Shown here: piece after piece, positions 15,120 to 59,700 of the stretch
Layout of the letters: every line of letters starts with the position of its first letter
Numbering within the stretch: the stretch's first letter is position 1
Assembly: GCF_963676685.1 (NCBI RefSeq)
Contig: NC_092345.1
Span: 88,536,001 to 88,600,000, forward strand
Length of the DNA stretch: 64,000 bases
Origin: Mytilus edulis
Lineage: Eukaryota
Direction: 5' to 3'
The notes under the pieces: model-generated
Databases searched by the model: none
What the model saw: the letters and a program-made list of their open reading frames with translations, nothing else
What the model was told of the DNA's origin: nothing
Program-made: the position numbers and the translations under genes

Positions 15120-16868
15120 GTCTGTTATATTTGTTCTATGTTTATTGTTTTGTCTTAAATTGAGCTGTTGGTATTTTTGACATGCCTGCAATAAAAGTGG
15201 AAGAATGTGAGGATGGAATGCTGGTATGAACTATTGGTACAAAGCTGTGTGTTTCAGAGTGTAGAAGACCTGGATGATTCATACCTTGTATGAAGATTCC
15301 ATATATATTACAAAGTTTTATATGTCAATTGTCCTTGATCTTATTTTCATGGTTCATGGACTGCTTGAAAAAAACTATGTATTTCTGACACAATTATTTC
15401 TCACCTACTAAGAGTAATCGGATAACTATAATTAGTAAATGGGATCCTTGTTAGACATGGTTTCCCTGTCCTGAACAATATTTCTGTGATCAGTTGTTAA
15501 GGTTATGCTTTCATGTCTCTATCTCATATACTGTAGTCAGTAGGTCAGCTTTATTTGGTGTACAGAAGATATACATGTCAGTTTGACAGGTTTTATCTGA
15601 CCTTGAGTTTATTTTCAGTTTATTAGGTCAATGTTAAGTTTGTCTCTCATAGTCATCTGACCTTGACTGAATTTTCACGGATCATTGATATCAAGTTTAT
15701 GTAAAGCTTGTTATAATATAACCCTTTTCTTTAAGAAATTCAACATAAAATTGATTCATGATCAGTATATAGCCAGTTGGATATTTCAGCTTGTTCTGTT
15801 GTCTAGTATTGTTTCACATTTGGTCTTTTCATGGCCTTTTATAGCTGACTGCGTTTTGGTTTTGCTCATTGTTGAAGGCCATTTATATATGGTATCTGAT
15901 TTGCTCATTTTTGAAGATCATAGTTAGCTGCAATCTATATAATCCACATCATTTGGACTACTGTCTCAGCTAAAATCATACATATGCTTATTTAAATAAT
16001 GATCAGCAGACAATCAACTCTTTGTATGAGTATTTGTGCCTAAATCACAATTTCAATCAGTTTTGTCGTTCCTAAACACAGTGAAACAGTAGAGACAAGG
16101 AATTGCAATTTCTGAGGGCATTGACTGTGGCAGCAATCTGAAAGATTTAGGTAACCACAAATGGTATATGTCAATGAAGTTGTAACAGTGTTAGCACATC
16201 TCTTTTTCAGACGATATTATTTGATCCCGAGCCTGCAGTCCTGCTTCATTGACATTGAATGGTTTGCATAATATAAATGTTGAAGCATTGTCATTTTAAT
16301 ATCAATATTTGTATTTAAATATCAAAATCATATATAGGAAAGACATATCTCTGTGTTTATTATCATTATTTTGTCATTTATCTTTAAACCTATAATGGAT
16401 AGACAGAAACTTGGGCCAGCAAATTGTGATCAGCATGACAAAATTTTGTCTCACATAGTTTAAATTCAAAACAAATAGTCTAATCATATTGTATTCATTA
16501 TGCAAAAATGCCAAATGAGGGATACAGCCTCTTTGAAGTCTCTAAAATAAAAATAAATTTGTCGACTGAATTAATATGCACTTACTTTTCTGAAAAAGTA
16601 CACAAATGTTGATTGACTTTGAGGGTACTTATGAGCATCTACTCTTAAGAAAAATTGACATCCTAATATTCTACTTATATGAAACATGCAAAGGATTTAG
16701 TGCAAAGTTTACTTCCAAATAGAATTGAGAATGGAAATGGGGAATGCATCAAAGAGACAACAACCTGACCAGAGAGCAGAAAATAGCAGAGGACCACCAA
16801 TGGGTCTTCAAAACAGTAAAAAAATCCAGCACCCAGAGGCATGCTTCAGCTTCCAAAGCTTGTTTAAT

Positions 16869-18320
16869 ATTACTGTGCTTATCCAGTGACCATTGGGGTC
16901 TCACAATAGCAATGGCTCAAACAGTTTACCAAATTGCAGTTTGATTTCTTCTCCCACAAACTGATCAACTGGTAAAATATTTTAGCAGATTGCTCAAGTG
17001 AAATGTTGTTAATATGAAGTGAGTGCTGTAAAATCAAAAGTAATACTTACCATGCAGATCCAGTTAGTTGATATCTTTGTCATTCTTTTCAAACAAAAAA
17101 ATTATTTACTATAGTACGAGTCACTGAATAAGAAGGTATAATTTTGACATGGAAACTTCTATCATAAATAGATTTTATAAATAAATAGTTCAAACCATTC
17201 TTTTGTAGATGTATATTTTATGGCTTTGTCTTCTAAGACAAAGTTATTGTGTAATTATGATTCGTATAATATTTTCTATACAAATTACTTATCTGCTGGC
17301 ATTAAAGGGAAATAATTTTTATTGAGTTATTGAGTACACTAAAAAATTAATCAATGATACCAGGCTTATGATTTAAAAAAAATCATCAATACGTCTTGAA
17401 TAAAAAAAAAATTGAATTGCCAAATTAGGAGGAAGTTGAAGGGTATTTAGGACACAAATTACAGAGGTTTTGCCAAATACTGCTTATAAGTTATCATGTG
17501 CTCCATGGTAGAGAATCCTTAGTACTTTGAACAATACAAAGTTTTGCAAAACAGCTGTTAATCTATAATTTTACCATATCAATAAAAATTCATGTCAAAA
17601 TAAAATTACTGGCTACTGGACTGGTGACAATTTCTTAATTTACAGGGGAATTTGTATGATTTATAAAACTTTGAATGTGTTCAATAATAGGTTTTTAACA
17701 GTTTTTTTTTCAAAATTTTAATCATCTTAAAAATAAATTTCATTGTTCTTTTCAAAACAGAGGATAAAAGTTTAATAATCATAGAAATAATGTTTCAAAC
17801 AAAATAAATGAGGAAAGTTGATATTTGTCAGACAAAAATTGTGACAAAATTTTGCTGATTTTCAGTAATGTAAATTATTTCCCTTTAATGGTAGCAGATA
17901 AGTAATTGCTTTAGAAAAAAAATCCAAATTACAATTATGCACTAACTTGTTGTTGGAAAACGGAGCTATAAATAATAGACTTACAAAACAATGTTTTGAA
18001 CTATTTATTTATAAAATCTATTTATGATAGAAGTTTTCTTGTCAATATTAGACCTTCTTATTCGGTGACTCATACAATAGTGAGTCATTATTGTGTTTGA
18101 AAAGAATGACAAAGATATGAACTAACTGGATCTGCATGGTAAGTATTACTTTTGATGTTACAGCACTCACTTCATACTAACAACATTTCACTTGAGCAAT
18201 CTGCTAAATTATTTTACCAGTTGATCAGTTAGTTGGAGAAGAAATCTAACTGCAATTTGGTAAACTGTTTGAGCCATTGCTATTGTGAGACCCCAAAGGT
18301 CACTGGATAAGCACAGTAAT
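16869..18320. repeat. Long imperfect inverted repeat, arms ~16869-17320 and ~17865-18320
   Basis: tactgtgcttatccagtgacc...gggaaataattt in the left arm is the reverse complement of the right arm with scattered mismatches. Spacer ~0.55 kb. Confidence 0.9.
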
Positions 18321-19165
18321 AAAAAACTTCCAAGCTGAGAGTACATAAAATAAAAACTCAATGTAGTGGTCAACAGGAATTAACTGCTGGACAGGTCTTA
18401 AAGTAACTAATACTTTACAACACATTACAATACTATTCTTAACCAAATATCAATTCGTTCCTTAATAGAGGCTGAGAAACAAGTGACAAAATATTACTTA
18501 AATTTAATGTATAATTTAACAGCAAATACTGTTGAAACAGATCTAAAAATCACTTACACAGCACAATTCATCAAGTATTAAATCATTTCTAGCACAGAGT
18601 TATAAGTAACAAATATGGACGGATGAAAATGAAGCATACCACTCATTCTGTTTAAAAGTTACGTAATTTTTATATATAATAATTGTCAATGTAAATTTTC
18701 AACACTATCTTTAGATTAAAAACAACATATATAATCAAATTCGAGTTTGCTCACACTCAAATTTTTTTAATAATCATAACCAAATATTGGTAATTCCAGA
18801 TGAGAGTTCCTTCTAAGGAGTTATACAATGCACCAATTCATTGATTAAGTGTCATTAATGGTTCTAATGGCAAGACATTCACATACAATTCTTCTTAGAA
18901 CAATTAAAAGGTAGAAATCACAAAATGTCAGTATCATGAAAAAGTATTCTTAAAAGTTGTATTTCAACAAAACTTCAAAGCAATATGTCTGAAAAGCTTT
19001 AAAGAATTGCATAGATTTATAAATACATATGTAGTTTGATCCTTTGTAACTTCATTGTTTGTGACTGTTTTGTGACATCACTGTCACCTCAAAAGAAAAT
19101 TTACAGCTAAAATTTTAATTAAAAATTTGCTGATTTAATTCTAAAGATTGAAGGTAATTTTTCTT

Positions 19166-19330
<165 letters not shown>

Positions 19331-20294: not shown

Positions 20295-20381
20295 CTGTTT
20301 TGATGTAAACCCTATGACATTAAATAATGGCTTCTGTATGTCGATGTCGTCTTCATTTTCTGCATACCTATTTTGCCATGC
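20295..20381 (-). CDS. CCDC148: CCDC148 exon (AWQNRYAENEDDIDIQKPLFNVIGFTSKQ)
   Basis: GT-AG boundaries; QKPLF motif. Confidence 0.9.
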
Positions 20382-20693
20382 CTGCAATAGTTTTTATATA
20401 TATGTTAAAATAAAAGAGACAGATAAAATAGAAAGGTCTGAGATTAATTCATCAAAGAGATATGTTTGTTGCAAATACTGTTATCAAATAATTTGTTGAG
20501 AATGATATTCACCAACACTCATGCAATGACTAGTTTTTATGTACAGCAATGTTTTGAAAACACATGAACACCAGTTAATGTCATCTTTGGAAACAAAACT
20601 ACTATTTACAGTAATATTTGAGAGTATTGTAAGCTAGCTTTGGTAACATTCTACATAGAAAGTTATCTTGCTACATATGATAACTCAACTTAC

Positions 20694-20744: not shown

Positions 20745-21069
20745 CTGTGAATTAATAAATAAAATAAAAGTTGACTATATGGTAGGGTAGGTATCTTTTA
20801 TGTTAACTATGTTGTATAAGAAAGATTTACACTAGACCTGTTATTATTTAGGTACACTTATAGGTAACCAATTTCCAATGTCATATGTGATATCTTTACA
20901 GTCTTAAAATATAACACTCATTTTGTGCATAGGAATTTTATCCATTTTCACATTTATAGAATAGATCATTTAATTTTTGTTGCAGGAATCCAATCCTCTG
21001 GAAATCATCAAATTTATATAATTTATAATATGAATTGTGTCTATAAGAATTATAGGAAGATGTTCTAGA

Positions 21070-21837
21070 TGTCACCGGATATATTTATCCATTTTGGTTC
21101 ATTATTATGCATTTCATATTAATTGTGTTTTCCGTGTTATATGTTTTCCATTCATATCATATTCATATTTCATATCATCATGTTTCTTGACGATTGACGA
21201 CAATAGTTTTGCGCTGCATATTTTGAAATAGACTATAGCTTTATACGCTATGCTTTGCTTTACGTACTCAATATTTAAATTAGTACAATAGAAAGTTAAA
21301 GCGATTCTTATTATTTAAATGATATATATTTATATTTAAATAGCATGAGTTTTGCATGAGCTCAAAGCGCGGCAATACTAACCATATATATATTAATACA
21401 ATTTCACTTTTAAAGTTAGTCACTGGTCATTATTACAATCGGGGAGGCGGCAGACTAATGTCTACGCTGCAGGTACTTGTAAATTTATTTATTCTTTTAG
21501 CAATGTTTAAATTAAAGTAAAGTTATTTTAGTATTTCATATATAGAATTCAGTATGGCTTGAAAGCCGCATTTTGGTATATAAGTTAAGGTCAGAATAAA
21601 GCTCCGTTGCATGCAAATATTTCAGTATAGATATTGTTCATATTTATTGGAACATAATTGTAAACTTGGGTTACAATTTGTATACTTGCAGATTATATAA
21701 TAAAGTATTTATATATTGGACGACTCATTAAATGCAGAAATGGCCCACACGCATTACAACGACAAGTTTATGGGTTTATGGTGATTTATCCCTCATCCCA
21801 AGTCGATTTTATATGGTGTTCCATTCTTCCTGCGACA
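21070..21837 (+). repeat. 5' LTR (768 bp)
   Basis: TGTCACC...GCGACA; direct repeat of 29064-29840. Confidence 0.97.
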
Positions 21838-21840
21838 TTT

Positions 21841-21858
21841 TGGAGGTTCCACCGAGAT
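21841..21858 (+). promoter_or_regulatory. Primer-binding site complementary to the 3' end of tRNA-Gln
   Basis: TGGAGGTTCCACCGAGAT, 3 nt after the LTR, is the reverse complement of the eukaryotic tRNA-Gln 3' end ATCTCGGTGGAACCT-CCA. Confidence 0.9.
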
Positions 21859-22607
21859 CGTCCAACGTTTATTGTTATACAGTCAAATTCGAGAAAATGG
21901 TTCCGGAACAATTAGTACCGCTACTTCATGGTGAGACAACAACCACTTGTCAACTTTGATGTCAGCAACTGCTTTATATATTGTGAATTTACGACTGTGA
22001 AACCCTGTTGTTTGAAAGGTATATTTGAAATTCATATTTCTTATAGTGCGCATATCTACCGGGAAGCTCATACTACATCATGTAAATATGTTTGATGTTA
22101 TTTATTATTAGTGAAAGTCAATTTACAAATTTCAACTGAAACATGCACGGTCAGCATACCTGTGAAGGTGAATGTGTATTGCTTTATCACGTGACAACCT
22201 AGACATAGAAGGAATTTAATCGATCAACGTTCCGCACGGATGGAGATTTTTACAACTGTTGCCGGTGAACTGTAGTAGTATTTATTTGACATTCATTTAT
22301 GAAAACAAACTGTTATAAATATTTATTGATTTAAAAATTCATTGTGTTTTATTGTTTGAATATATTTTATCATCTTTACTGTATTTTACAGATTTGATTA
22401 TTGTTTGTGCATGAATAGAAGCACGCACCTGATTTAACAAGTTACGCACTAATAGTTACAGCAGCGACGTAAGAAAGCGACTTGCATTGACACAGACATA
22501 TGAGTAAGTTCATCATCATTACATCATTTTCATTTCATTCATGTGTATTGTCCTTGTTTTGTTTTGTTTATTTTGTGTTGTTTTTGTCGTTGGTTAAAGT
22601 TCAAGTG

Positions 22608-23747
22608 ATGGCTGAAGCGGAGTCAAAACAAGGTTTAAAAACTGAACCTAAGATTTCAGAAGAACACGTTCAGAAAATGATTGAGTTTTTGAATCATAAT
22701 ACAAGCTTTAGAGTTGTAACATCAGATGAGTTTGATAAATTAAGTAGTGAGAAGCATGTATCTTTTGGACATAGTACTCCTATAAGGGGAACTACTGCTC
22801 ATACTAAGCCTCCTTTGGCACCTGTTAGGTCTTCGTCTATAGCAAGAGTGGCAACTTATGCTGCAGGTTTTGGTAATAATACTACCGTTTCTTGTTCAAA
22901 CTCTTCATATGCAAAACCCAAGATACCTGTATTTTCTGGGGAAGAAAAAAGTGAAGTGTCTTTTGACGTATGGAAGTTCGAAGTTAAATGTATAATACGG
23001 GAAGGTAATTATACAGATACTATATTATTGCAGTGTATAAGAGGGTCCCTAAAAGGTAAAGCTAGGGGTTTATTGTTATCACTCCCAGATGGGGCTACAC
23101 CCACACAGATTATTGAAAAATTAGATGGGATATATGGAAATGTGTTCAGTAGTGAAGCATTGCTTCAAAAGTTTTACATGGAAACTCAGAAACAAGGTCA
23201 GTCTGTTGCTGATTATGGTATGAGACTTGAAGATATTGCCCAAAAAGCTGTTGAAAAAGGTCAAATTAGCTCACAGGCTAAAAACGACATGCTTAGATCA
23301 AAGCTGTGGTCAGGTCTCAGAGATCCCCTTTTGAAAAATGCTAGTCGTTATAAATACGATACTGTTGAAAAATTTGATCAGTTATTAAAAGAGATCCGAT
23401 CTATTGAATTGGACTTATCAAATTATGCCTCAGGTTCTGACAATAAGATTCAACATCAACCTGCGGTTGTTGAACAGTCAGGTATGCAAGAGATGATTAA
23501 GTCCATGAAGCTCTTGAATACTAGAATGGAATCATTTGAGGGAGAGTTAAAGAAATTAAAAGAAAGTAAACCTGATGATCATACAAGTTCGTCAAATAGT
23601 CAGTTTCGTGGCCAAGGTCGCGGGAACTATCGAGGGTCTGATAGAAGGGGTAGATTTAATAATAACCGTGGCTGGCGTGGCCGTGGTTATACAGGAAACC
23701 AACAAAACCAGAATTATAATTCTCAGACGAGGGGTTTAAACGGGTAA
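22608..23747 (+). CDS. gag: Gag, PNMA-like capsid with an RG-rich C-terminus (frame is also open from ATG 22500)
   Basis: FSGEEK...FDVWKFEV...IRGSLKGKA...Q..GQSVADYGMRLE capsid motifs; no CCHC knuckle. MAEAES at 22608 is the likelier start. Confidence 0.9.
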   Translation: MAEAESKQGLKTEPKISEEHVQKMIEFLNHNTSFRVVTSDEFDKLSSEKHVSFGHSTPIRGTTAHTKPPLAPVRSSSIARVATYAAGFGNNTTVSCSNSSYAKPKIPVFSGEEKSEVSFDVWKFEVKCIIREGNYTDTILLQCIRGSLKGKARGLLLSLPDGATPTQIIEKLDGIYGNVFSSEALLQKFYMETQKQGQSVADYGMRLEDIAQKAVEKGQISSQAKNDMLRSKLWSGLRDPLLKNASRYKYDTVEKFDQLLKEIRSIELDLSNYASGSDNKIQHQPAVVEQSGMQEMIKSMKLLNTRMESFEGELKKLKESKPDDHTSSSNSQFRGQGRGNYRGSDRRGRFNNNRGWRGRGYTGNQQNQNYNSQTRGLNG

Positions 23748-23806
23748 AGGTCTCGGTTGAGGGACAAACCAGAGACTTATATAGGCCTGAGAATGTGCCT
23801 AGTCCC
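23735..23806 (+). promoter_or_regulatory. -1 programmed ribosomal frameshift signal (slippery heptamer plus pseudoknot)
   Basis: T TTA AAC at 23735-23741 in gag phase. Stem AGGTCTCGGTT (23748-23758) pairs with AACCAGAGACTT (23767-23778); loop GGGAC can pair with GTCCC at 23802-23806. pol is in the -1 frame and open from the slip site. Confidence 0.85.
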
Positions 23807-26800
23807 AAACTTGTTGATACTTGTACGCAGAGCATTCTTGCTCAACGTATGATTGGTTTAGCAAATGAATCTTTTATTTACATTAATAATACAAAGTGTA
23901 AGGCTTTGATTGATACAGGGTCCATGATATCAACAATATCTGAAGGTATGTTGAATGAGTTAACACCTCCACCTGAATTGAAAAGTTTAGATGACTTTAG
24001 CTTATCAATTAGTGTGGCAGGAGGTACCACTTTACCGTATTTAGGTTACATAGAAGCTAGTATAAAGGTTGATTTTGTAGAGCAAGATTTTATGATACCA
24101 TTGTTGGTTGTCTCTCTTACTGATTATAACAAAAATGTACCTGTTATTATTGGTACAAATGTTATCAGATTGTTAGATTCATGTTCTATGGTTGGTAGAC
24201 AGCAAACTAACATAGACAAGATCCCAAGAGAGTGGGATATTGCTTTTAATTCTATCAAAGATGAAGCAATAGGTCAAGTTTACTCTACGAATAAAAATCC
24301 CATCAAGATCAAACCTTTATCTGTCTTAAATGTATCTGGTTTAGCAAGGTCTAAGACACCAGAAGCATGTACAGTAGTGACTGAGAGTCTGTCAGATGAC
24401 TTGTCAGATGTGTCAGTATGTCCACGGGTAGTAAACGTTAAGGGGTCAACTTGTCGGGTCCCAGTTAGAATATTTAACATGACGGCCAAAGCTATGGTCA
24501 TAAAACCTAAAACACACTTGTGTTCTCTGAACGAGGTTAAGGTTGTCCGTCATGTAGATGTACACAGTGCTGAAAGCGCTGTTGATGAAGAGAAAGGGAG
24601 TTTGTCTGATCAGGAGTTATCATCCCTAGGAATTAACTTAGAGAGTTTCGATGTTCCTGAGGATACTAAACTCAGATTGAAAGGTTTAATTAGCAGGTAT
24701 AGGTCTATTTTCTCCCAAGGACCCACTGACATTGGGCTCACAGATCTGATGGAGCACGAGATCCAGTTATCTGATGACAAACCCTTTAGACAACCCTACA
24801 GGCGTATTCCTCCAGCATTGTTCGATGAGGTAAGAGAACATGTACGTGAAATGCTGGAGGCGGGCTGTATAAGGGAGTCTAACAGTCCTTACGCCAGTAA
24901 CGCGGTTCTCGTGCGTAAGAAGGACAGTTCTTTGCGCTTCTGTTTAGATTTTAGATCTTTAAACAAGAAGACAATTCGGGACAGTTATTCTTTGCCTCGC
25001 ATTGACGAGACAATTGATTGTCTAGCTGGGGCTAAATACTTTACGCGACTGGACCTTCGATCGGCATATTGGCAAATGGGCATTAAAGAGTCAGACAAGC
25101 ATAAGACCGCGTTTTCGTTAGGTCCATTGGGGTTCTATGAATTTAATAGGCTCCCCTTTGGTCTGACAAACGCAGGGGCATCGTTTCAAAGATTGATGGA
25201 AAGATGCATGGGAGAAGCTCATTTACGTGAATGCTTAGTATTTTTAGACGATATTGTGGTATTTTCACGTAACATAGATGACCATTTTGCTAGGCTTGAG
25301 TCTGTTTTTAGTCGTCTTAAACACCACGGCTTAAAACTCAAAGGTAGCAAGTGTGAATTTTTTAAGAAGGAGATTAAATATCTTGGTGTTATAGTGTCCG
25401 CCGACGGTATCAAAACCGACCCAGAGAAAGTTATAGCAGTCCAAAATTGGCCAGCTATAAAGAGCATTAAGGACCTTCGTAGGTTTATAGGTTTCACTTC
25501 CTATTACAGGAAATTCATTAGAGACTACGCTAAGATTGCAAAGCCTCTTAATGACCTATTTCTTGGACACCCTACGAACAAGAAGAACCTTGGGTCTAAA
25601 CGAAAGAAGTCTAGTAAGCCTAGTCCTTGGAAATGGGGTCCCGAGGAACAGAATGCTGTTGATCTTATTATTGAAAAGTTGACAAACCCACCAGTTCTTG
25701 CATATGCAGATTTTTCATTACCTTTCATTGTAAACGTTGATGCAAGTGGTACCGGTTTAGGTGCCGTCTTGTATCAAGAACAGGAGGGTAAAGAACGGGT
25801 GATAGCTTACGCTAGTCGTAGCTTACGTGGCCCAGAGAAGTTATATCCAGCCCATAAAAGAGAATTTTTGGCGCTTAAATGGGCTGTAACTGACAAGTTT
25901 CATGATTATCTCTTTGGTAGCAAATTTACCGTTAGAACGGATAATAATCCACTTACGTACGTTCTCGGTAAAGCTAAATTAGATGCTACCGGCCATAGAT
26001 GGGTTGCTTCATTGTCAAACTATGATTTCAGCATTGTGTATAGAACAGGCAAGTCAAATATTGACGCTGACGCTCTTTCTAGACTTCCGTCCGATTGTAA
26101 AGAAGTTTTTAGTGACGTAGTTCAGGCTATTTGTAAATCTATAGTATTAACTCCAGATACAAACCCTGCTATTGAAACTGTATGTTTGTCACATGATATT
26201 CAGTTTATAGACAGCGATAGCGAGATTTTAGCCGATACATCCAAATTCGCTGATATAGATTGGACGTATGAGCAGAGACAAGATTCATGCTTAAGTAGAG
26301 TTATTGATTTAGTTACAACCGGTCATAGACTCACTAAGCGTCAGATGTCTCATGAGACGGATCTTGTCCGAAGATTATTGAGAGAATGGGATAAACTTTG
26401 TCTGAAAGATAAGGTTTTATATAGGAAAAGCTACATTAATCATGAAGCTGTGTTTCAACTAGTATTACCTTCTATTTACCATGAACTAGTACTGACTGCT
26501 CTGCACGACGATGTAGGTCACCAGGGGCGCGATCGTACTTTATCACTTGTGAAATCAAGATATTTTTGGCCGGGTATTGATAGAGACGTAGAGAGAAAAG
26601 TTTCGAACTGTCAGAACTGCATACTCAGAAAGTCGAAGTGCAGGAATTCTGCATCATTGGTAAATATATGTTCTTCCTACCCTTTGGAGCTCATTTGTAT
26701 AGATTTTCTAACTCTTGAGCAGTCAAAGGGAGGATATGAGAATATTTTGGTCATTACGGATCATTTTACGAGGTACGCTCAAGCTATACCTACGAAAAAT

Positions 26801-28081
26801 CAGTCCGCTAAAACTACAGCTAAAGCATTATGGGAAAATTTTATTCAGCACTATTCTTTTCCATCTCGATTTCACAGTGATCAGGGACGAAATTTTGAGG
26901 GTAAGGTTATCCAGGAACTGTGTAGATTAGCAGGCATAAAAAAATCTCGCACTACTCCGTATCACCCGCAAGGGAATGGTCAGTGCGAGCGTTTTAACCA
27001 GACTTTATTAAACATGTTGGGTACTCTTGATGATGAAAAGAAATCCAATTGGAAAGTGTATGTTGCGCCGTTAGTACATGCCTATAATGCAACAAAACAC
27101 GATACAACTGGATACAGCCCACATTATCTGATGTTTGGTTGGCACCCGCGGCTTGCCATTGATGCTTTTATAGGTAATCCAAACCAGTCTGTTACAAAAG
27201 ATCACTCTGCATACGTGAGTGATTTGAAAAAACGACTGCAGTTTGCCTATAGAACAGCTGAAAAATCAGCCGAAAGGACTGGGAGACGTCATAAAACGCG
27301 ATATGATTTGAAAGTCAGACAGTCAGTACTGGAGCCTGGTGATAGAGTTCTACTTAAAAATGTGGCGTTTAGAGGGAAACATAAATTAGAAAATAAGTGG
27401 GGTAAACAACCTTATGTTATAGTTTCAAAACCTGACTCTGATATTCCGGTTTATATCATCAGACAGGAACACGGTCGGGGCCGTAAAACAGTACATAGGA
27501 ATATGTTACTTCCCATTACTTCCATTCCCATTTTAAACCCTCAGTGTAGTGAGAACTCCCAAGATAAGAGAAATGTAGTTTCAAAGAAAGATTGTCCGTC
27601 TGTATTAGTAGACAAAGTTTTAGACTCTGATAAAACAGTGGACGAAATCACTACGGACGACCAAGTTGTTTCAATTACTTCATCTGATATTTCTGAATCT
27701 GAGTCAGAAGAAGAGTTTTTAGTGCACGATTGCCCGAGGCGTCGAGTAGATATAGTACTGCCTCTGAACCCTTTAGCGGATGAATTTCATCCGGGCATTT
27801 TGAATCTAGATGAAGTAAGTCAGCGATCTAGTAGTCCTGACAGTAGTATTGAACAATCTGATGGTCAGAGGTCAAGTATTTTAGATGTATCTGAGTTTAG
27901 CAACCCAGTTCCCGTCAGTAGTGAATCAGAAACCAGTCCTGATAATCAAACGTCAAGCGCCTCTGATAATCATGCGCCGAGCGCTTTAGATTATGTCCAA
28001 CCAGAGTCTGAAATTCAAGTGCGGCGGTCGAGTAGACAAGTGAAACCGCCAGTCCGTTTTCAAGATTATGTTAGATACTAG
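23735..28081 (+). CDS. pol: Pol polyprotein: aspartic protease, reverse transcriptase, RNase H, integrase
   Basis: ALIDTGS (PR); LPFGL and FLDD (RT); NVDAS...E...TDN (RNase H); H-H-C-C, IDF, SDQG, GQCERFN (IN). Uninterrupted. Confidence 0.97.
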   Translation, partial: FKRVKVSVEGQTRDLYRPENVPSPKLVDTCTQSILAQRMIGLANESFIYINNTKCKALIDTGSMISTISEGMLNELTPPPELKSLDDFSLSISVAGGTTLPYLGYIEASIKVDFVEQDFMIPLLVVSLTDYNKNVPVIIGTNVIRLLDSCSMVGRQQTNIDKIPREWDIAFNSIKDEAIGQVYSTNKNPIKIKPLSVLNVSGLARSKTPEACTVVTESLSDDLSDVSVCPRVVNVKGSTCRVPVRIFNMTAKAMVIKPKTHLCSLNEVKVVRHVDVHSAESAVDEEKGSLSDQELSSLGINLESFDVPEDTKLRLKGLISRYRSIFSQGPTDIGLTDLMEHEIQLSDDKPFRQPYRRIPPALFDEVREHVREMLEAGCIRESNSPYASNAVLVRKKDSSLRFCLDFRSLNKKTIRDSYSLPRIDETIDCLAGAKYFTRLDLRSAYWQMGIKESDKHKTAFSLGPLGFYEFNRLPFGLTNAGASFQRLMERCMGEAHLRECLVFLDDIVVFSRNIDDHFARLESVFSRLKHHGLKLKGSKCEFFKKEIKYLGVIVSADGIKTDPEKVIAVQNWPAIKSIKDLRRFIGFTSYYRKFIRDYAKIAKPLNDLFLGHPTNKKNLGSKRKKSSKPSPWKWGPEEQNAVDLIIEKLTNPPVLAYADFSLPFIVNVDASGTGLGAVLYQEQEGKERVIAYASRSLRGPEKLYPAHKREFLALKWAVTDKFHDYLFGSKFTVRTDNNPLTYVLGKAKLDATGHRWVASLSNYDFSIVYRTGKSNIDADALSRLPSDCKEVFSDVVQAICKSIVLTPDTNPAIETVCLSHDIQFIDSDSEILADTSKFADIDWTYEQRQDSCLSRVIDLVTTGHRLTKRQMSHETDLVRRLLREWDKLCLKDKVLYRKSYINHEAVFQLVLPSIYHELVLTALHDDVGHQGRDRTLSLVKSRYFWPGIDRDVERKVSNCQNCILRKSKCRNSASLVNICSSYPLELICIDFLTLEQSKGGYENILVITDHFTRYAQAIPTKNQSAKTTAKALWENFIQHYSFPSRFHSDQGRNFEGKVIQELCRLAGIKKSRTTPYHPQGNGQCERFNQTLLNMLGTLDDEKKSNWKVYVAPLVHAYNATKHDTTGYSPHYLMFGWHPRLAIDAFIGNPNQSVTKDHSAYVSDLKKRLQFAYRTAEKSAERTGRRHKTRYDLKVRQSVLEPGDRVLLKNVAFRGKHKLENKWGKQPYVIVSKPDSDIPVYIIRQEHGRGRKTVHRNMLLPITSIPILNPQCSENSQDKRNVVSKKDCPSVLVDKVLDSDKTVDEITTDDQVVSITSSDISESESEEEFLVHDCPRRRVDIVLPLNPLADEFHPGILNLDEVSQRSSSPDSSIEQSDGQRSSILDVSEFSNPVPVSSESETSPDNQTSSASDNHAPSALDYVQPESEIQVRRSSRQVKPPVRFQDYVRY

Positions 28082-28174
28082 TATTTTAATGTTTTAACCT
28101 TTGAATATTTTTTTATTGATATTTGGAATTTAGTTTTATTTCTATTTAGTTTCATTTTTGTTTGTTTCACAGAA

Positions 28175-28849
28175 ATGAATCAGCATACATATATTTATAC
28201 GTCTAGTAGAGGAAAAGTTCTAGAAGGCAAAGTTCGTTGTAAAACGTTAGTACGTGTAGTGCCTGGAGGAAAATTGGAAACTTTGTGCAAATATGCATAT
28301 GAGGATCTTAAAGATATAGACGGTCTGAAAATCGTGTATTTCATAGCTGGAATACCGGATATTTGTTCTTTAGAAAGGAATCGTAGATCAAATTATGAGG
28401 AATCATTTCTTAAAAGAACTGACAATAGTTGTTTTGAACATGCATTGAGACTAAAGAATACTATAGTAAATACAGAAACTAAATTGAAAAGTATAAATTG
28501 TAAGGTAGTTTTTGCTACTATTACAACTATGAGTTTCTGTCTTTGGAATTTACATAGATTGTCTATTGGAAAAACAAGTCATTTAAAGTATGAGAATGCA
28601 TACGATAGGATGCAGCTAGAACTTAACTCCATTATACAGGATGTAAATAATTTTATTACAGAATTTAATCATACAAATCATGTTATCACTCCATTTTTTC
28701 ATTCTCCTGTACATAAATGTAAGAGTGGAAAATTTAGATATTTGTATAACAGATTAGTGGATGGGGTACATCCTACATTTGATTTGGCAAGAATTTGGAT
28801 TGATCGTTTGTCAACGGCAATTCAAAGCAATGAGGAAAGATTTTTTTAA
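28175..28849 (+). CDS. ORF3 in the env position: SGNH/GDSL-hydrolase-like protein, 224 aa
   Basis: Block I IYTSSRG (GDS-like Ser), block II VPGG, block III FIAGIPD, block V LVDGVHP (DxxH). Lies between pol and the PPT; preceded by a strong splice acceptor. Confidence 0.8.
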   Translation: MNQHTYIYTSSRGKVLEGKVRCKTLVRVVPGGKLETLCKYAYEDLKDIDGLKIVYFIAGIPDICSLERNRRSNYEESFLKRTDNSCFEHALRLKNTIVNTETKLKSINCKVVFATITTMSFCLWNLHRLSIGKTSHLKYENAYDRMQLELNSIIQDVNNFITEFNHTNHVITPFFHSPVHKCKSGKFRYLYNRLVDGVHPTFDLARIWIDRLSTAIQSNEERFF

Positions 28850-29050
28850 TTTTATTTAACTTTTTGATATTTTTTTGTTCTGTTATTTGTTTGTGAATCC
28901 TATTGGTTGTCTTGAATTTTGGTCATTGCTATATGGTATAGAGGCGTTTGCCGCATACCTATCTAGAATGCCCAAATTTCAAAAGTGTCATATTGTTGTA
29001 TAAGGTTTGATATATTGGTTTCGATATAGTTTCGAGACGAAACTTTTTGT

Positions 29051-29059
29051 AGGAGGGGG
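29051..29059 (+). promoter_or_regulatory. Polypurine tract
   Basis: AGGAGGGGG just before the 3' LTR. Confidence 0.85.
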
Positions 29060-29063
29060 TGTA

Positions 29064-29840
29064 TGTCACCGGATATATTTATCCATTTTGGTTCATTATT
29101 ATGCATTTCATATTAATTGTGTTTTCCGTGTTATATGTTTTCCATTCATATCATATTCATATTTCATATCATCATGTTTCTTGACGATTGACGACAATAG
29201 TTTTGCGCTGCATATTTTGAAATAGACTATAGCTTTATACGCTATGCTTTGCTTTACGTACTCAATATTTAAATTAGTACAATAGAAAGTTAAAGCGATT
29301 CTTATTATTTAAATGATATATATTTATATTTAAATAGCATGAGTTTTGCATGAGCTCAAAGCGCGGCAATACTAACCATATATATATTAATACAATTTCA
29401 CTTTTAAAGTTAGTCACTGGTCATTATTACAATCGGGGAGGCGGCAGACTAATGTCTACGCTGCAGGTACTTGTAAATTTATTTATTCTTTTAGCAATGT
29501 TTAAAATGTTTCAATTAAAGTAAAGTTATTTTAGTATTTCATATATAGAATTCAGTATGGCTTGAAAGCCGCATTTTGGTATATAAGTTAAGGTCAGAAT
29601 AAAGCTCCGTTGCATGCAAATATTTCAGTATAGATATTGTTCATATTTATTGGAACATAATTGTAAACTTGGGTTACAATTTGTATACTTGCAGATTATA
29701 TAATAAAGTATTTATATATTGGACGACTCATTAAATGCAGAAATGGCCCACACGCATTACAACGACAAGTTTATGGGTTTATGGTGATTTATCCCTCATC
29801 CCAAGTCGATTTTATATGGTGTTCCATTCTTCCTGCGACA
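29064..29840 (+). repeat. 3' LTR (777 bp)
   Basis: Matches the 5' LTR by eye apart from an extra 9 bp (aatgtttca) near 29505. Confidence 0.97.
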
Positions 29841-30124
29841 TAGACATCACTTTGAATTAGTATTTCTATGCAGTAAAATGAAGACACTTTCAAAACAAAA
29901 GAAAATTATTTATCAAAATACAAAATAAATTATTTTTGCCTCTTCTAAGAATCAGAAAACAGTTATAACTAGTACTAGATTCTCCTTTGATGGTGTGCAA
30001 TGTTGAATCTGACTATAGTAGATTTCTGTTCATTATTTGACTTATTGGTTAAGATTATAGTGATCAGTGTAGTTGTTTTGTTATCTTGTTTGTCTTTGAT
30101 ATATACTAATTGAGTAAAACAAAC

Positions 30125-30242
30125 CTGCTCTCTTAAGGCCTCAAGTCTTTCTTCTTTTTCTATTTCTGCTTGCTTTTTTTCTTCTTCTAAGTATTTTCTC
30201 TCCTCAATTTTTGCATCTAATTGTTCTGCTCTATATTTAATC
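30125..30242 (-). CDS. CCDC148: CCDC148 exon (RIKYRAEQLDAKIEERK...ERLEALREQ)
   Basis: GT-AG boundaries; matches RVKYRQE...RLEALRKQ. Confidence 0.9.
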
Positions 30243-34545: not shown

Positions 34546-34657
34546 CTCAGTTTAGTAGCTTGAGATGGAAATTATTGAGTAAAAAAATCAATGGATTTTC
34601 TATGTTATGAGCAATGTTGAACTTTAAACTTTGTACCTTTGTGTGAATTAAATTTAC

Positions 34658-34864
34658 CTTTTCATGCAGGACTTCTCTCACTTGTCTCTGTTTACGGTTG
34701 TACTCAGCTTTAACTTCATCTAATTGAGCAGCCATCTCTGCCTCAGTGAATATTGACTCGGCTTTGTGATACAATGCTGATCTTCCTTTCTGCCAAGCCA
34801 CCATTAAAGCTTTCTTTCTTTCACGAAAATATTTGTTAGAATCACACCATTCTTCATGTGACAC
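34658..34864 (-). CDS. CCDC148: CCDC148 exon (VSHEEWCDSNKYFRERKK...EVLHEK)
   Basis: GT-AG boundaries; matches VEHEKYCDQYRF. Confidence 0.92.
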
Positions 34865-35435
34865 CTGCATATAAATATTGCATCAATAAATGTTTTTCCA
34901 TAGTTTTTGAGCACCATATAACAATACTTGAACATTACCTATAAGCTAGGTTTCAAAGGAATAATTCAAGTGAACAATTATGTCTATTTTAATACAAAAA
35001 CTATTTCTTGCTTCCATCATTCTTAGTTTACATATACTTAATGTTGTACATTGTATTTAATAATGAATTCTGCAATACTTATTTGTGAACTCTGAAAATA
35101 ACTGGACATTCCTCTAAATTCCTGTTAGTGATGAAATCTTCAAACTGTTTAAACAGTTATTTTAGTTTTATTAATCCCCATGCCTGCTCATGTAAAATGT
35201 CTTAACTTACCATTCCATTTGTCTTTCTATGGTCTTTAATAACTCACTTTTAGGTATTGATTTTGTTCATTGATGAAGGACTTACAGTGACCTATAGTTG
35301 TTAACTTCTGCATCATTTGGTCTCTGGTGGAGAGTTGTGTCATTGGCAATCATAACAAATCTTATTTATTTATATTAACTGCTAGGTGTTATCAATATTT
35401 TTATAAACAACATTAAGTATAATGTATATCATTAC

Positions 35436-37693: not shown

Positions 37694-38445
37694 ATGAGAA
37701 GATGTCTGATTACCTTAGATTCCATACTGGTTGTGTGGTGCTTGCTTTAAACTTAGCAAACTCTATATCTATTACCTTAGATTCCATACTGGTTGTGTGG
37801 TGCTTGATTATGAGAAGATGTCTGATTACCTTAGATTCCATACTGGTTGTGTGGTGCTTGCTTTAAACTTAGCAAACTCTATATCTATTACCTTAGATTC
37901 CATATACTGGTTGTGTGGTGCTTGCTTTAAACTTAGCAAACTCTATATCTATTACCTTAGATTCCATACTGGTTGTGTGGTGCTTGCTTTAAACTTAGCA
38001 AACTCTATATCTATTACCTTAGATTCCATATACTGGTTGTGTGGTGCTTGCTTTAAACTTAGCAAACTCTATATCTGTTACCTTAGATTCCATATACTGG
38101 TTGTGTGGTGCTTGCTTTAAACTTAGCAAACTCTATATCTATTTCCTTAGATTCCATACTGGTTGTGTGGTGCTTGATTATGAGAAGATGTCTGATTACC
38201 TTAGATTCCATACTGGTTGTGTGGTGCTTGCTTTAAACTTAGCAAACTCTATATCTATTACCTTAGATTCCATACTGGTTGTGTGGTGCTTGATTATGAG
38301 AAGATGTCTGATTACCTTAGATTCCATACTGGTTGTGTGGTGCTTGCTTTAAACTTAGCAAACTCTATAGAGAAGATGTCTGATTACCTTAGATTCCATA
38401 CTGGTTGTGTGGTGCTTGCTTTAAACTTAGCGAACTCTATATCTA
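37694..38445. repeat. Complex tandem amplification of the CCDC148 exon 3' end and splice donor
   Basis: About a dozen copies of ttaccttagattccatactggttgtgtggtgcttg with two alternative continuations, derived from 38370-38445. Confidence 0.9.
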
Positions 38446-38775
38446 AAGATGCTTCAAAGTCTTCAAAATCTTCAAATAATGAACAACATGGGTTTCCTTG
38501 AGTCAGGTTAACTCCTCTATGAACATCAATGTCTGATTGTAGCCTTTTACGTAAATTGTTAAGTCGTATCAGTTCTTTATTCCACACAAGTTTATGTTGT
38601 TTAAGCAGAGTATTTTCCTTGGTTTGTTTAGACAATTGTTCTATTTTCTTCACCTTGAGGAGAGACTTATGAGCACTAAACTTTTTCTCTGCAGCGAGTA
38701 GTCGTAACTTGTCATAATCTACAGCTTTATATTTATTACTTCGAACTCCATTTGTAGCTTTGTTTACAAGTGTGT
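38388..38775 (-). CDS. CCDC148: CCDC148 coding exon 2 (DTLVNKATNGVRSNKYKAVDYDKLR...TLLKQHKLVW...QPVWNLR)
   Basis: Matches KYKPVDYQQLR...TLIKQHKQVW; GT-AG boundaries. Confidence 0.93.
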
Positions 38776-39217
38776 CTAAAAAATAACAATGTACCATCAT
38801 TTAAGCATTTGAGATCAAATATTTTCTAAAAGAATTATTAAACAATAACTTTGACAATGATTTAAGTCAGAAACATTCTAATAGCAAGGCCAGTTCTGTG
38901 TCTGACATGTAGTTTTTTAAACATCCTTGTCCTTTGGTTTGTGGTGGATACTTGTCTCATCAGCCATCATATCACACATGTTCTTATACAGTCATCAAAT
39001 GATTCTGAAAGAACAGTCATGTAACAGGAAAACACTATAGTATGTAACCATGAAGCCCATAAATTATATTTGTTCTATATTATTTTTACAGTTAAGATGA
39101 AGATGTTTATTATAAGGGACATTCAATATTAATAAGGAAAAACCAGTAGATCAACACTATTTTTCACTCAAAAAAGCTTTACTGCACTTAACCTAATACT
39201 GTCTTTGAAATAATAAA

Positions 39218-53988: not shown

Positions 53989-55938
53989 ATGTTACGATCC
54001 ATATCCACACACAACTTCATACACTTTATTAAGCCACAAAGATTAGAGTTCAAAGATGGCACCAATTATATAGTTGGTGGAAACTCGACTGGTAAATCGG
54101 CCATTTTTGAACTGATACGTAGAAGTTTGTCAAATGATATCAATACAACGTCATCCTCGTTCACTATTGATTCTAACATTGCATATTCAATCTGTCATTT
54201 CAAAATCCCAGATGGGATCAAGCAACAGTTTCCTTGCAATCCAACCGATATCATCTCTGGTCTCTTTGTGGAGAAAGCAAACAAAGGCGACGAAGGCCAA
54301 CTTTCTTATTACTATTACAAAGTTTTAGTAATGACAAAGGAGTTCAATAGCTTAGAAATATTAATAACTAGATTTGAAGGGTTACGTTCATGTAATTCAG
54401 ATCAATTTCATTCCCAATTATATTTGTATTATAATTTTAACAATGATAAAGTATCAGAGTCTATAAAAGATGTAATGAGAGAAGGCAACCATGATACCTA
54501 TCATAAAAGTATCCAGTCTCTTTTTGATGAAATAAAGCAAAATGCTATCTTTGATGAAAACATTTGCAACCAAGATAAAGTTGACAATCTATTCAAGAGC
54601 CTTGAAGATAGTTATGTGAGCGTCCTACCAATGCGTTCAATTGGGCCTTTACAGTGGACTAGAAGTGAAAAGAATTGTCACAGCGAGAGAGAGAACAACT
54701 ATGCAATTACATGTCAAAGAGCAGAGATTATAAATAATCTCCTAGACAGCGATAAAACTGACACATATCTTCACAATAAGTATCACACGTTGCTAGTTGC
54801 TCCATATAGATTTCAAAAAGAGGGAAGCGACGTTTTTATGTATAACGACGACGGAGCTACAATAATTAAAAAGCCCCTCTTAAAAACTCCCGAGGGCATA
54901 ATAGAGGCTGAACAGCTAATACTACTGTTATCACAAAGCAACTTGTTAACAATTACACTAGAAGAGCCAGACAGAGGAATGCACCCACAAATGATAACAA
55001 AAATGCGAGACTGGGTTTTAAAGAAAGTGAAGAATAAGACCGTTCTTGTTATATCCCACAATCCGTCCATTTTGGATCATGCAGTTCTTGACAGAACATA
55101 TATATGCTCAAAAAGTATCCAAAGTGGATATATTTCTCACTCTGTCATGAAATTCCCTGATGGATATAGAAAATATGGAAGAATTGAGGAAACGAAAAAT
55201 CTGTTATTTTGTGAACGCATTTTATTTGTAGAAGGATTTACCGATAAAATCTTCATTGAGGCAATTTTTGATGTCCTGATAAATGATAGTAAAAGGAACA
55301 ACAAAATCATTGGTCAGAAACAGATAATCAATACTGAATTGTTTAGGAAATACCTATCAACCATTCATGTCGCAGAATTGGTAGAGGGATGCGGAAGTGG
55401 ACCAAAAAAGATGGAATTTTGTGACAAATTACGACGGGAATGTTGCATTGTCTATGATGCTGACGTATTAAAAACATCACCAAAGAAAGAGACACTGTCC
55501 GAGCCTAGAATATTTATTTGGAAGGAAGGGGCACTGGAAAATGTAATCAATAAAGCTGCTATTCACATGCCCCAAGAAATCAAGGATAAGCTAGACATAC
55601 CTATTTCGAGACGAAATTTTAAGAATTGGAAAACTAGTTTAGTTGATAAGAGTGACAAGGACATTGCTTTATTAGCCAATGCCCTTCTTGATTCATCTGA
55701 CGAGATCAATAGGTTTTTAGAATTTTTACGTAAGATGATGGAAAATCCGAATATTGCTCTTAATATAACTAGATCGGAAAAAAGAAAACTGTCATTTCCT
55801 GACTGTAGTTCTAAAAGAATGACTGGAGAACAACATCCAGTTGAGGATCTAGAAACAATTGACGATCCGGAAATGGAACCAAGAACAGGAATTTCTCAAG
55901 ATTTCGATGATGTTGTTTTAGATGACGTCGAAAAATGA
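53989..55938 (+). CDS. OLD-family ATP-dependent nuclease-like protein: N-terminal ABC ATPase plus C-terminal TOPRIM, 649 aa, single coding exon
   Basis: MLRSISTHNF start typical of Rad50/OLD ATPases; Walker A GGNSTGKS; degenerate signature TPEG; Walker B/D-loop TLEEPDRGMHP; H-switch VISHNP; TOPRIM LFVEGFTD, YDAD and EGALE. Acceptor ttttttttcttcag| lies 4 nt before the ATG; AATAAA cluster near 56000. Confidence 0.88.
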   Translation: MLRSISTHNFIHFIKPQRLEFKDGTNYIVGGNSTGKSAIFELIRRSLSNDINTTSSSFTIDSNIAYSICHFKIPDGIKQQFPCNPTDIISGLFVEKANKGDEGQLSYYYYKVLVMTKEFNSLEILITRFEGLRSCNSDQFHSQLYLYYNFNNDKVSESIKDVMREGNHDTYHKSIQSLFDEIKQNAIFDENICNQDKVDNLFKSLEDSYVSVLPMRSIGPLQWTRSEKNCHSERENNYAITCQRAEIINNLLDSDKTDTYLHNKYHTLLVAPYRFQKEGSDVFMYNDDGATIIKKPLLKTPEGIIEAEQLILLLSQSNLLTITLEEPDRGMHPQMITKMRDWVLKKVKNKTVLVISHNPSILDHAVLDRTYICSKSIQSGYISHSVMKFPDGYRKYGRIEETKNLLFCERILFVEGFTDKIFIEAIFDVLINDSKRNNKIIGQKQIINTELFRKYLSTIHVAELVEGCGSGPKKMEFCDKLRRECCIVYDADVLKTSPKKETLSEPRIFIWKEGALENVINKAAIHMPQEIKDKLDIPISRRNFKNWKTSLVDKSDKDIALLANALLDSSDEINRFLEFLRKMMENPNIALNITRSEKRKLSFPDCSSKRMTGEQHPVEDLETIDDPEMEPRTGISQDFDDVVLDDVEK

Positions 55939-56776: not shown

Positions 56777-59700
56777 TAGCACGGCAGCTTTGTGAACAAT
56801 ATGCACATCCTGCTACAAGATGAAATTTGGCATAGACCTTCCTCAACTATTACTCTTTAATTTCAGATAGGGAGGCATTTGTAAAAAAATGTCTCACTTC
56901 CGGTAAAATCCAAAATGCCGGACATCATACTTAAATCAGCCCAGAATCAGAGGCTATAGTGTGTGAATATGTGTTTTTATCATGCTGCTATAATAATATT
57001 TGGTACAAACCTTTGTAATGTACTACTTTTGGATATATTATATAGATTAGATGTCTTTAAAAACCCTTCTTCCGGAAAAATCCAACATGGCGGACATTGT
57101 ACTAAAACAAGATTATTTTTTAGGGAGGGCGATTGAAATGTGTTTTGACGTATTGCTACTATCATTAAATTGTGCGGGAACCTTTCTTTGAAGCTGCTAA
57201 CGGATACAATGTACAAGACATATGTCTTTAAAACCTTACTTCCGGTAATATTCAAAATGACGGACATAGAAATATCATTATTTTATTTTGATATTCAACT
57301 TTTTTTCAAAATGTAAAGAAAATGTTGTTTTTTTTGTGCTGGTTATTAAACTTTTGGCTTTAAGTTATCCTCTAAACCACTTATTCTATTCTATAGTTAA
57401 TGTTTAAATACAAAGTTAAAACTTCCAGTAAATAAAACCAATATGGCGTAAATTTCAAAGATGAGTCCGCAGTCCATATCTTCGATGTAGAGTTTTGGAT
57501 AGATTGATTAAAAATAAAATTAAATAACTTAGGTACTAAAACATCTTTAAAATTACTGATTTATGTCCGCAAATACATGTTTATTCACAATCGGAGAGCT
57601 GATTTTCCTCATTTACAAAGACCGTGGTATTGTTTCTTACATAAATAATGTACAAGCTCTTGATAAGAGAAGCACAAATATGGCAGTGATAGGTGAGCTA
57701 GGGAGATATCCTTTATTTATTGAAGTTATAGTTAATATGTTTTCATACTTATCACGTTTAACAAGTACAGAGGACCAATTATTGTCTGAAGCTCTCCTTG
57801 TATCAAAATCCTTATCAAACCATAGTAAGAAAAGTTGGTTTAATTCTATAAGTTCACTAGCAAAATACTTAGACATAGATTTATCGCAAGTTTTTAATAT
57901 GAAATCAAACTTGAAAAGATTTATTTTAAACAAACTTAAATTAAAGTATAATAAGTTGTGGTATTCATCTTTAAACAATGACAGAAAAAATATGTCATTT
58001 GTGAATAAATTTAGAACATACAGACTTTTAAAGAGAAATATATATTTTGAACCTTATTTGGCTATAGGTAATAGGAATCTGAGAATTCAGATGACAAAAT
58101 TCAGAATTAGTAATCATGATTTAGAAATAGAGAGAGGTAGATACAGGGGACTTCATGCAATGGATAGAACTTGTAATCTTTGTAAAAAAGAAGTGGAAGA
58201 TGAACTCCATTTTTTACTTAAATGTTCATATTTGGAAAGTGAGAGAGTTTCCATTATTTCCAACATAGTTAAAAGTTACAAAAACTTTCACAATTTATAT
58301 TATCAATCACAATTTATTTGGCTAATGTCCAATGAAGATAGTCACATTTTTAATCAAGTAAGCAATTTAATTAATAATTTAAATGTTGTTCGAAAACAAC
58401 TATTAGAAACTTAGTGAGTTTATATATTTTACTATAAAAAGACAGAGGCATAATTTAGATATTTGTACAGTTTCTTATTGTAGGATCATAAAAGCACCAG
58501 GGGAAAAACCAGGATATTTAAATTCAGTTTCCTATTTTTTAGGATCACTGTATTTGTCAAAGTTGAAACATGATACATTTTATAAATATACATTAGTGTG
58601 TCTTTCTTTTCTCTTCGTTGTAATCATTGATTTAATTGTACTCAAATAATTGTAATCATTTTGTAATCATTGTACATAATTTAACTTGTGATTATTCTGC
58701 TTGTAATGGGCGTCTCTAATTGACAATAAAATATATTTGATTTGATTTGATTTGATAAGATGAAGAGGACTCACAAAGAGTTGTCCAAAAGGGTTCCAAT
58801 GAATCGTATTATCCCCTTTGCCGTTCATAAGCGTCTAGACTGGTAAGCATAGGAACTAATTCCAAGCTTGTTACTCATCCACACCTTCCATGGTATATTT
58901 CACGTTTTACATGCTGAAAAAACTAGACAGAGTCGTTCAAATAGCATCATAAGCGTCTGGACTAGTTAGCATAGGAAAAAAATCCAAGCTTGTTTCTCAT
59001 CCACACCCGCCATGGTATATTGCACGTTTTACATGCTAAAAACACTAGACCAAGTCGTTCAAATAGCATCAATAAGTCTTTTCTCTTCCAAAAACATGTT
59101 TTCTTGCTTCGTAAATAAAATTGAGAATGGAAAAGAGGAATGTGTCAAAGAGACAACAACCCGACCATAGAATAGACAACAGCAGTAGGTCACCAACAGG
59201 AAACCCCATCTGATAAGTTTGTTCGATCTTACTACAAAACCATGTATCGCTTTATCAATGACATTATCAAATCCATATCTGGTGATGTTGGCTGATCAAT
59301 CATCATTCTAAATCAATAAAGTCACATCTTCAAACACCATCCATGTCAACAACGAAGTTCCCTTTCAAGTAAACGTACATATGAAAGGTCAGGGATAGAT
59401 ATATATCTAAAGCTTTTCCCACTTCCAAATGCAAGCCAAAGTTCGTCTGCCCTATGTCACGGAATAACGAAACAGCAATGACAGCAACATCAGTATCGAC
59501 TGTTCGAGTCATGACTCAGTTAAGTCTATGTATCACTGTATCATACAGCAAGCTCATGTGAATAACAACTAAAACGTTCTTTCTTAATGTCGTCACCTCT
59601 CAGAAAACGTTGCCAATTTTGAGAATTTTTTTTTGACCATGGATTCGTCTATGTATTCCCTTTCCCCTAAATGTAGCTCTTGTTTCTTATAGCAGCCTTC

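Follow-up and report, generated by a model that had tools for sequence, protein, structure and literature searches.

A complete Gypsy element at positions 21070-29840 of the window, which is the whole 64,000-nt stretch of the Mytilus edulis genome analyzed here, carries a third open reading frame (ORF3) in addition to intact gag and pol. We consider it very probable that ORF3 is a real SGNH gene of this element that has been under selection. The initial annotation, made from the sequence alone, described an intact 224-aa ORF3 between pol and the polypurine tract (PPT) of a mollusc Gypsy element. Both points held up, as the carrier is complete and its named close matches come from Mytilus. The features of the element and its target site are listed below.

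21066-21069 (no strand): 5′ copy of the target-site duplication, 4 bp, TAGA
21070-21837 (+): 5′ LTR, 768 nt, TG...CA
21841-21858 (+): primer-binding site (PBS), 18 nt, begins with TGG
22500-23747 (+): gag ORF, 415 aa, PNMA-type capsid domain (Pfam PNMA, E 2.7e-11)
23720-28081 (+): pol ORF, protease-RT-RNase H-integrase by Pfam, with an acidic/Ser-rich tail
23735-23778 (+): candidate -1 frameshift signal, T TTA AAC heptamer in the gag frame, then a hairpin
28143-28172 (+): polypyrimidine tract and CAG, candidate splice acceptor that ends 2 nt before the ORF3 ATG
28175-28849 (+): ORF3, 224-aa protein with a modelled SGNH fold
29051-29059 (+): PPT, AGGAGGGGG, 4 nt ahead of the 3′ LTR
29064-29840 (+): 3′ LTR, 777 nt
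29841-29844 (no strand): 3′ copy of the target-site duplication, TAGA

The TG...CA LTRs, target-site duplication, PBS, PPT, and pol domain order (protease, RT, RNase H, integrase) are those of Ty3/Gypsy elements, and the closest PDB relative of pol is Ty3 Gag-Pol (E 6e-99). The two LTRs have zero substitutions and differ by a single 9-nt indel; given this near identity and the TAGA duplication, the insertion is very recent. The PBS presumably pairs with the 3′ end of tRNA-Gln. On the plus strand, a short open frame begins within the 5′ LTR and crosses the PBS (by eye, 21732 to about 21930-21959). The Gag C-terminus is RG-rich and lacks a CCHC knuckle. No Pfam match at E ≤ 1 was obtained for dUTPase or zf-CCHC in the element, and a chromodomain match was likewise absent from pol. 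A pyrimidine-rich stretch coincides with gag codons 1-36 (22500-22607, plus strand). This segment resembles a small leader intron, with a donor-like site at 22504 and a pyrimidine tract, and the true start of gag may instead be Met37 at 22608. The pol frame is open from 23720, with its first ATG at 23849. Because this frame is -1 relative to gag, we propose that the heptamer and hairpin are a probable -1 frameshift signal; the hairpin has a predicted energy of -21.7 kcal/mol (z -2.1), and equally good ones arose in six of 200 shuffles.

A host gene on the minus strand contains the element in one of its introns, in antisense orientation, and the nearest exon is ~285 nt from the 3′ LTR. This gene encodes a coiled-coil protein that we take to be CCDC148-like, with minus-strand exons near 38384-38800, 34547-34870, 30125-30242, 20300-20400, and 19200-19330. 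A tandem array of 32-nt units extends from 30312 to ~32300, beginning ~470 nt from the 3′ LTR. At 16862-18327, a probable non-autonomous DNA transposon has 413-nt inverted repeats that are 89% complementary and separated by 640 nt. Two plus-strand ORF fragments (57560-58414 and 62316-62915) look by eye like the terminal parts of proteins from non-LTR or Penelope-type retroelements. A single plus-strand ORF at 53989-55938 encodes a 649-aa protein with an ABC-type ATPase and an OLD-like TOPRIM domain (Pfam AAA_23, AAA_21, and OLD-like_TOPRIM; PADLOC GajA, E 2e-14, and Old, E 7e-11). It has a splice-acceptor-like tract ahead of its ATG, and its resemblance to the bacterial Gabija A/OLD anti-phage nucleases suggests an animal homologue of these.

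ORF3 starts 93 nt past the pol stop and ends ~200 nt ahead of the PPT. A chance ORF can be ruled out, as shuffling the pol-to-LTR interval never produced a frame of 224 aa (0/2000; longest 133 aa). The SGNH blocks are in the order that had been annotated, namely, TSSRG (residues 9-13), PGG (30-32), GIPD (59-62), and DGVHP (196-200). The key residues are Ser11, Gly31, Pro61 (at the block-III Asn position), Asp196, and His199. Pfam Lipase_GDSL matched ORF3 below the cut-off (E 0.023) and matched 11 of 100 family members at E ≤ 0.01. The proposed fold was upheld by structure prediction: the AlphaFold2 model, built from a 100-row alignment, has a pLDDT of 97.1 and a pTM of 0.92; its best structural match in a search of 48,161 chains has a Z score of 18.3 (rmsd 2.5 Å over 165 residues); and Foldseek matched it to SGNH hydrolases at E 2e-7. 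The model confirms a flavodoxin-like α/β/α SGNH hydrolase fold that spans residues 1-224. The structural neighbours include O-acetyltransferases, sialate and xylan acetylesterases, PAF acetylhydrolase, and lipases. Because the best of these mix carbohydrate/sialate acetylesterases with lipases, the fold gives no pointer to a particular substrate.

The 19-residue Kyte-Doolittle mean of ORF3 peaks at only 1.37, so a transmembrane segment is absent. In the model, the protein begins with strand β1, and both model and hydropathy lack a hydrophobic leader. The annotated absence of a signal peptide and of membrane-spanning segments is thereby supported, and with the SGNH fold covering its whole length, ORF3 can be rejected as a fusogen or Env. 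The statement that the element carries an esterase “instead of env” stands for the position in the env slot, but not for a functional or historical replacement of env. The calculated pI of ORF3 is 9.2. Homodimer prediction, run twice without the alignment, scored 0.00 both times, which weighs neither for nor against a dimer. One extra residue near aa 25 (28247-28255, in frame) was observed relative to three near-identical proteins and all 10 other rows of alignment A1.

At E ≤ 1e-3, the ORF3 family has 457 representatives (50% clustering); tightening the threshold to 1e-10 leaves 212, and the analysis drew on the best 150 of these. Overall, 198 proteins were retrieved. Conservation was assessed in 110 aligned proteins of 200-310 aa, drawn from 159. 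In this alignment, Ser11 is conserved in 102 proteins, Arg12 in 101, Gly31 in 105, Asp196 in 108, and His199 in 109. Of the 103 relatives that have a residue in each of the three triad columns, 100 keep Ser-Asp-His whole, although relatives gathered by similarity to ORF3 are biased toward motif retention. The Ser, Asp, and His columns rank with the best conserved across distances of ~30% identity. The annotated retention of Ser and Asp-x-x-His was thus correct, and the nucleophile is the second Ser of TSSRG. Since the residue preceding Ser11 is S, T, or D (D in 14 relatives), Ser11 corresponds to the serine of GDS and Ser10 to its D position. A Thr preceding the nucleophile is known in AlgJ and AlgX (PMC10792757).

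Replacement of the block-III Asn had also been annotated, and we found that it extends to the whole family: this position is P in 70 of the 110 proteins, C in 29, N in five, T in four, V in one, and a gap in one. With Pro or Cys family-wide, decay of a single copy can be rejected as the source of the loss. ORF3, with Pro61, lacks the Asn of a canonical GDSL enzyme. This bars the term canonical but not membership in the superfamily, because some accepted SGNH families lack this residue; active examples are SASA (Gln), PatB1 (Arg), and XOAT1 (none) (PMC9487903). Catalysis by ORF3 is nevertheless not guaranteed, because an Asn-to-Ala change kills SrL and SaOatA (PMC10779480; PMC9487903).

A basic core is common in the family (pI >8 in 98/111 proteins). 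A hydrophobic window above 1.6 was found in just four of 111, in each case beginning within residues 1-25. The taxonomic range is judged from Mytilus-named matches and from look-alike clusters in Atlas, whose few taxon records include molluscs and annelids; of 30 homologues looked up by cluster, one had a species name. A scan of GTDB genomes with alignment A1 gave 28 pattern-matching stretches, none of which was confirmed, and tblastn against 50,697 phage records gave no match to ORF3. The BFVD fold search found nothing beyond distant phage GDSL esterases (8-17% identity), and ORF3 matched no family in PADLOC. One relative, P0021 (2135 aa, on a 1.39-Mb contig), has an N-terminus that is RRM-like by eye, followed by five to six tandem SGNH repeats that lack the catalytic Ser and His; it is possibly a domesticated or ancestral pseudo-enzyme. 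A C-terminal [KR][RS]xW motif, often behind an acidic tail, is present in 46 of the 110 aligned proteins (e.g., P0034, P0035, and P0194) and missing from the mussel ORF3.

The expectation that ORF3 is retained in sister copies held across diverged families but found no support among the nearest database copies. The near-identical proteins in the databases are named from M. edulis and M. galloprovincialis, and none of the three is full length: P0001 diverges ahead of the Asp-His block, P0003, from a 770-nt contig, stops at 132 aa, and P0013 passes into unrelated sequence. Decay of the copies or errors in the models may account for this. Several modelled ORF3 copies have altered motifs. Genomic context is known for eight of the 198 retrieved proteins, and ~90 distant rows share 25-40% identity. 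Among the nine of 198 proteins longer than 400 aa, seven have gag or pol ahead of the SGNH domain, as does the short P0109. A search for longer proteins containing ORF3 found eight, all of them Mytilus gene models. P0060, P0160, P0161, P0164, and P0165 represent one pol-SGNH family (family B) and P0162 a second. The pol-then-SGNH order is common to three Mytilus families when the mussel element is included, and in family B the SGNH join is placed after the same C-terminal motif that closes the pol of the mussel element. Pairwise identity among the three families is 51-52% in the protease region and 45-49% in ORF3, and this similar divergence argues for long co-descent under purifying selection. 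All three share one ORF3 clade (18 rows, SH-aLRT 98) in a quick tree of 100 A2 rows and 13 added segments, which is a subset of the 198 proteins.

A different arrangement was observed in the M. coruscus model P0020, which contains an integrase end, a chromodomain, a Cys-rich stretch, and then a related SGNH domain. We assume that the Cys-rich stretch is env-like; it had no Pfam or PDB match. Either the model is a chimera, or the P0020 element carries env and esterase together.

ORF3 is likely expressed by splicing in the manner of env, as judged from its sequence context. Its candidate acceptor (19 of 25 pyrimidines) is in a three-way tie for the best among 263 YAG sites of the internal region. 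The ORF3 match begins at residues 1-4 in eight of nine extended gene models, all of them predicted, which fits an acceptor at the start of ORF3. Five donor-like sites match at least 7/9 of the consensus, each with an open in-frame upstream ATG, and do not discriminate among donors. In two named gene models, P0163 (M. californianus LOC127700987) and P0011 (M. trossulus LOC134721030), the SGNH start is joined to non-pol N-termini, which suggests that host exons were spliced onto the ORF3 acceptor.

We tentatively propose that ORF3 is an auxiliary factor, not a fusogen, that works at membranes during particle assembly or traffic; this reading is plausible but falls short of probable. A spliced subgenomic mRNA, like that of env, would give a soluble, cytosolic protein of ~26 kDa that acts as a slow serine acyl-hydrolase. 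Its oxyanion hole would lack the block-III Asn, for which the near-invariant Arg12 possibly substitutes. The basic surface would direct ORF3 to acidic membranes, where it would bind or deacylate a lipid or a lipidated protein and thereby aid particle assembly on, traffic with, or exit from a membrane compartment. The membrane-directed role is suggested because the esterase of ZfL2-1, which is likewise basic and of low turnover, binds acidic lipids, and its association with phosphoinositides and liposomes does not depend on catalysis (PMC3905857). The basic pI of ORF3 suits nucleic-acid binding equally well.

Other roles can be envisaged for an intact SGNH protein in this position. ORF3 could be a counter-defence or host-modifying deacylase, which would blunt restriction of the element by stripping an acetyl or acyl group off a protein, glycan, or signalling lipid of the host, with no involvement of particle membranes. 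The conserved triad, the acetylesterases, O-acetyltransferases, and PAF acetylhydrolase among the top structural neighbours, and the action of several Asn-less SGNH families on carbohydrates (PMC9487903) are compatible with such an enzyme, and an acceptor of its own would provide the separate expression suited to a regulatory product. However, surface or lumenal glycans are unreachable without a signal peptide, and the ZfL2-1 esterase showed no activity as a histone-peptide deacetylase (PMC3905857); we regard this role as unlikely. Somewhat doubtful as well, and in our judgment rather improbable, is a pseudo-enzyme scaffold or RNA binder like the OSK domain of Oskar, which would bind element RNA or germ-granule components with catalysis being incidental. 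The family-wide loss of the block-III Asn, the basic pI, and the catalytically dead repeat form P0021 would fit, as would the structural proximity of OSK (5a4a, Z 15.4, rmsd 2.9 Å, 165 aligned residues) and a weak Pfam OSK match in one of 100 family members (E 0.008). Yet OSK lacks the nucleophile and triad (PMC10792757) that are whole in nearly all relatives of ORF3 (100/103), and it is placed under ~15 active esterases in the structural ranking.

Capsid-borne phospholipases of non-enveloped viruses offer an analogy for an env substitute, in which particle-borne ORF3 would breach a membrane lipolytically and allow non-fusogenic passage between cells or hosts. The env-like position, the candidate spliced expression, and the very recent insertion agree with this idea, and the possibility has been raised for rotifer elements (PMC5408684; PMC6431247). 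We consider it improbable for the mussel element, as ORF3 has no transmembrane segment, signal, or coiled coil; there is no sign of horizontal transfer, with equal divergence of protease and ORF3 and named close matches from Mytilus only; and P0020, if real, means that an env-like stretch and SGNH can coexist. An extended version, for which the chances are similarly low, is that the Asn-less SGNH family is an ancient dedicated membrane-penetration enzyme of retroelements, packaged with Gag particles. If true, env-less Gypsy elements would cross membranes lipolytically by a non-fusogenic counterpart of env, which would explain in a testable way how LTR elements could pass from soma to germline, or through water, in marine invertebrates. 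Finally, ORF3 might be a passenger, recently captured from the host or another element and now drifting. Its GC and GC3 (0.31 and 0.21) differ from those of pol (0.40 and 0.34), the near-identical database copies are incomplete, and ORF3 has an extra residue near aa 25 that its relatives lack. This is nonetheless highly improbable, given a layout common to families that are ~50% identical and an active site that is the focus of conservation; moreover, a near-identical cellular source gene was not found, and the GTDB genomes and phage records had no match.

SGNH genes are found repeatedly in unrelated retroelements, namely, LINE ORF1, Penelope-like elements, Ngaro, and rotifer LTR elements. A probable independent capture in molluscs, kept over ~50% divergence in an element that is still transposing, strengthens the case for an acyl-hydrolase step of general use. 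ORF3 is also a small, single-domain, and confidently modelled protein for assay, with an unusual oxyanion hole. Among the literature matches listed, with Repbase entries and supplements outside the scope, none described a mollusc Gypsy element with an SGNH ORF3. The accessible text of two mollusc transposable element surveys and one survey of env-carrying metazoan elements makes no mention of an esterase or hydrolase, nor, in one of the mollusc surveys, of SGNH or GDSL (PMC7599744, PMC10294476, PMC13524379). The concept of a GDSL ORF3 is already known from rotifer Vesta; the mussel carrier, the size, and the active site differ.

Both precedents that the initial annotation cited, GDSL-type ORF3s in LTR elements of bdelloid rotifers and lipid binding by LINE esterases, were traced to published descriptions, of Vesta (PMC5408684) and of the ZfL2-1 esterase (PMC3905857), respectively. 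Vesta shares with the mussel element a Gypsy-type gag-pol-ORF3 layout, with an SGNH protein in the env slot that has no transmembrane segment or coiled coil; for this reason the rotifer proteins were argued to be auxiliary rather than env-like (PMC5408684). In contrast, Vesta has a dUTPase and a CCHC Gag (except for Vesta1b), whereas the mussel element has a PNMA-type Gag and no Pfam match for dUTPase or zf-CCHC, which excludes membership in Vesta. The Vesta GDSL amplicons are 1.3 kb compared with 0.67 kb for the mussel ORF3; their invariant residues are intact, whereas the mussel family has Pro or Cys in place of Asn; and they group with the GDSLs of Athena (PMC5408684). It is probable that the env slot of the mussel lineage acquired its ORF3 independently, from a distinct SGNH family that lacks the Asn.

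SGNH ORFs are also described in LINEs (CR1/L2/RTEX) and Penelope-like elements (PMC3905857). The analogy with the LINE ORF1p esterase (ZfL2-1, 4c1b) that had been drawn for ORF3 holds for a basic retroelement SGNH protein with a conserved triad, but fails in other respects. The LINE esterase is in the ORF1 position with a coiled coil and ARM and keeps Asn195 (PMC3905857), whereas the mussel protein is a stand-alone ORF3 after pol, with Pro61 and no coiled-coil leader. The signature His191 of ZfL2-1, four residues ahead of the block-III Asn (PMC3905857), maps to ORF3 position 57 by ungapped offset from the published numbering, and His is present there in none of the 110 relatives. Membership in the LINE-esterase subfamily is rejected on the signature His, the N-terminal coiled coil, and the ORF1 position. 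The 4c1b structure was not among the profile matches at E ≤ 10 or the 50 listed structural matches; its likeness may be hidden by the domain-swapped crystal form.

Beyond these, a fish Helitron has an SGNH ORF (PMC4021074), and Ngaro elements have one after YR (bioRxiv 10.1101/2021.08.05.455354). Ngaro resembles the mussel element in having a separate SGNH ORF 3′ of the core replication genes, but belongs to another retroelement order, with YR and split direct repeats (bioRxiv 10.1101/2021.08.05.455354). The PNMA genes derive from Barthez-lineage Metaviridae (PMC3670739), with which the Pfam PNMA match of the mussel Gag (E 2.7e-11) suggests a likeness; the accessible text on Barthez describes no SGNH ORF (PMC3670739), whereas the mussel element has one. 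The carrier may belong to Barthez or to a MolGy clade (PMC6238403). SASA/CE6, PatB1, XOAT1/PC-esterase, and Oskar OSK combine, as ORF3 does, an SGNH fold with a non-canonical or absent block-III Asn (PMC9487903; PMC10792757). This likeness is at the fold level, and in ORF3 the compensating residue may be Arg12.
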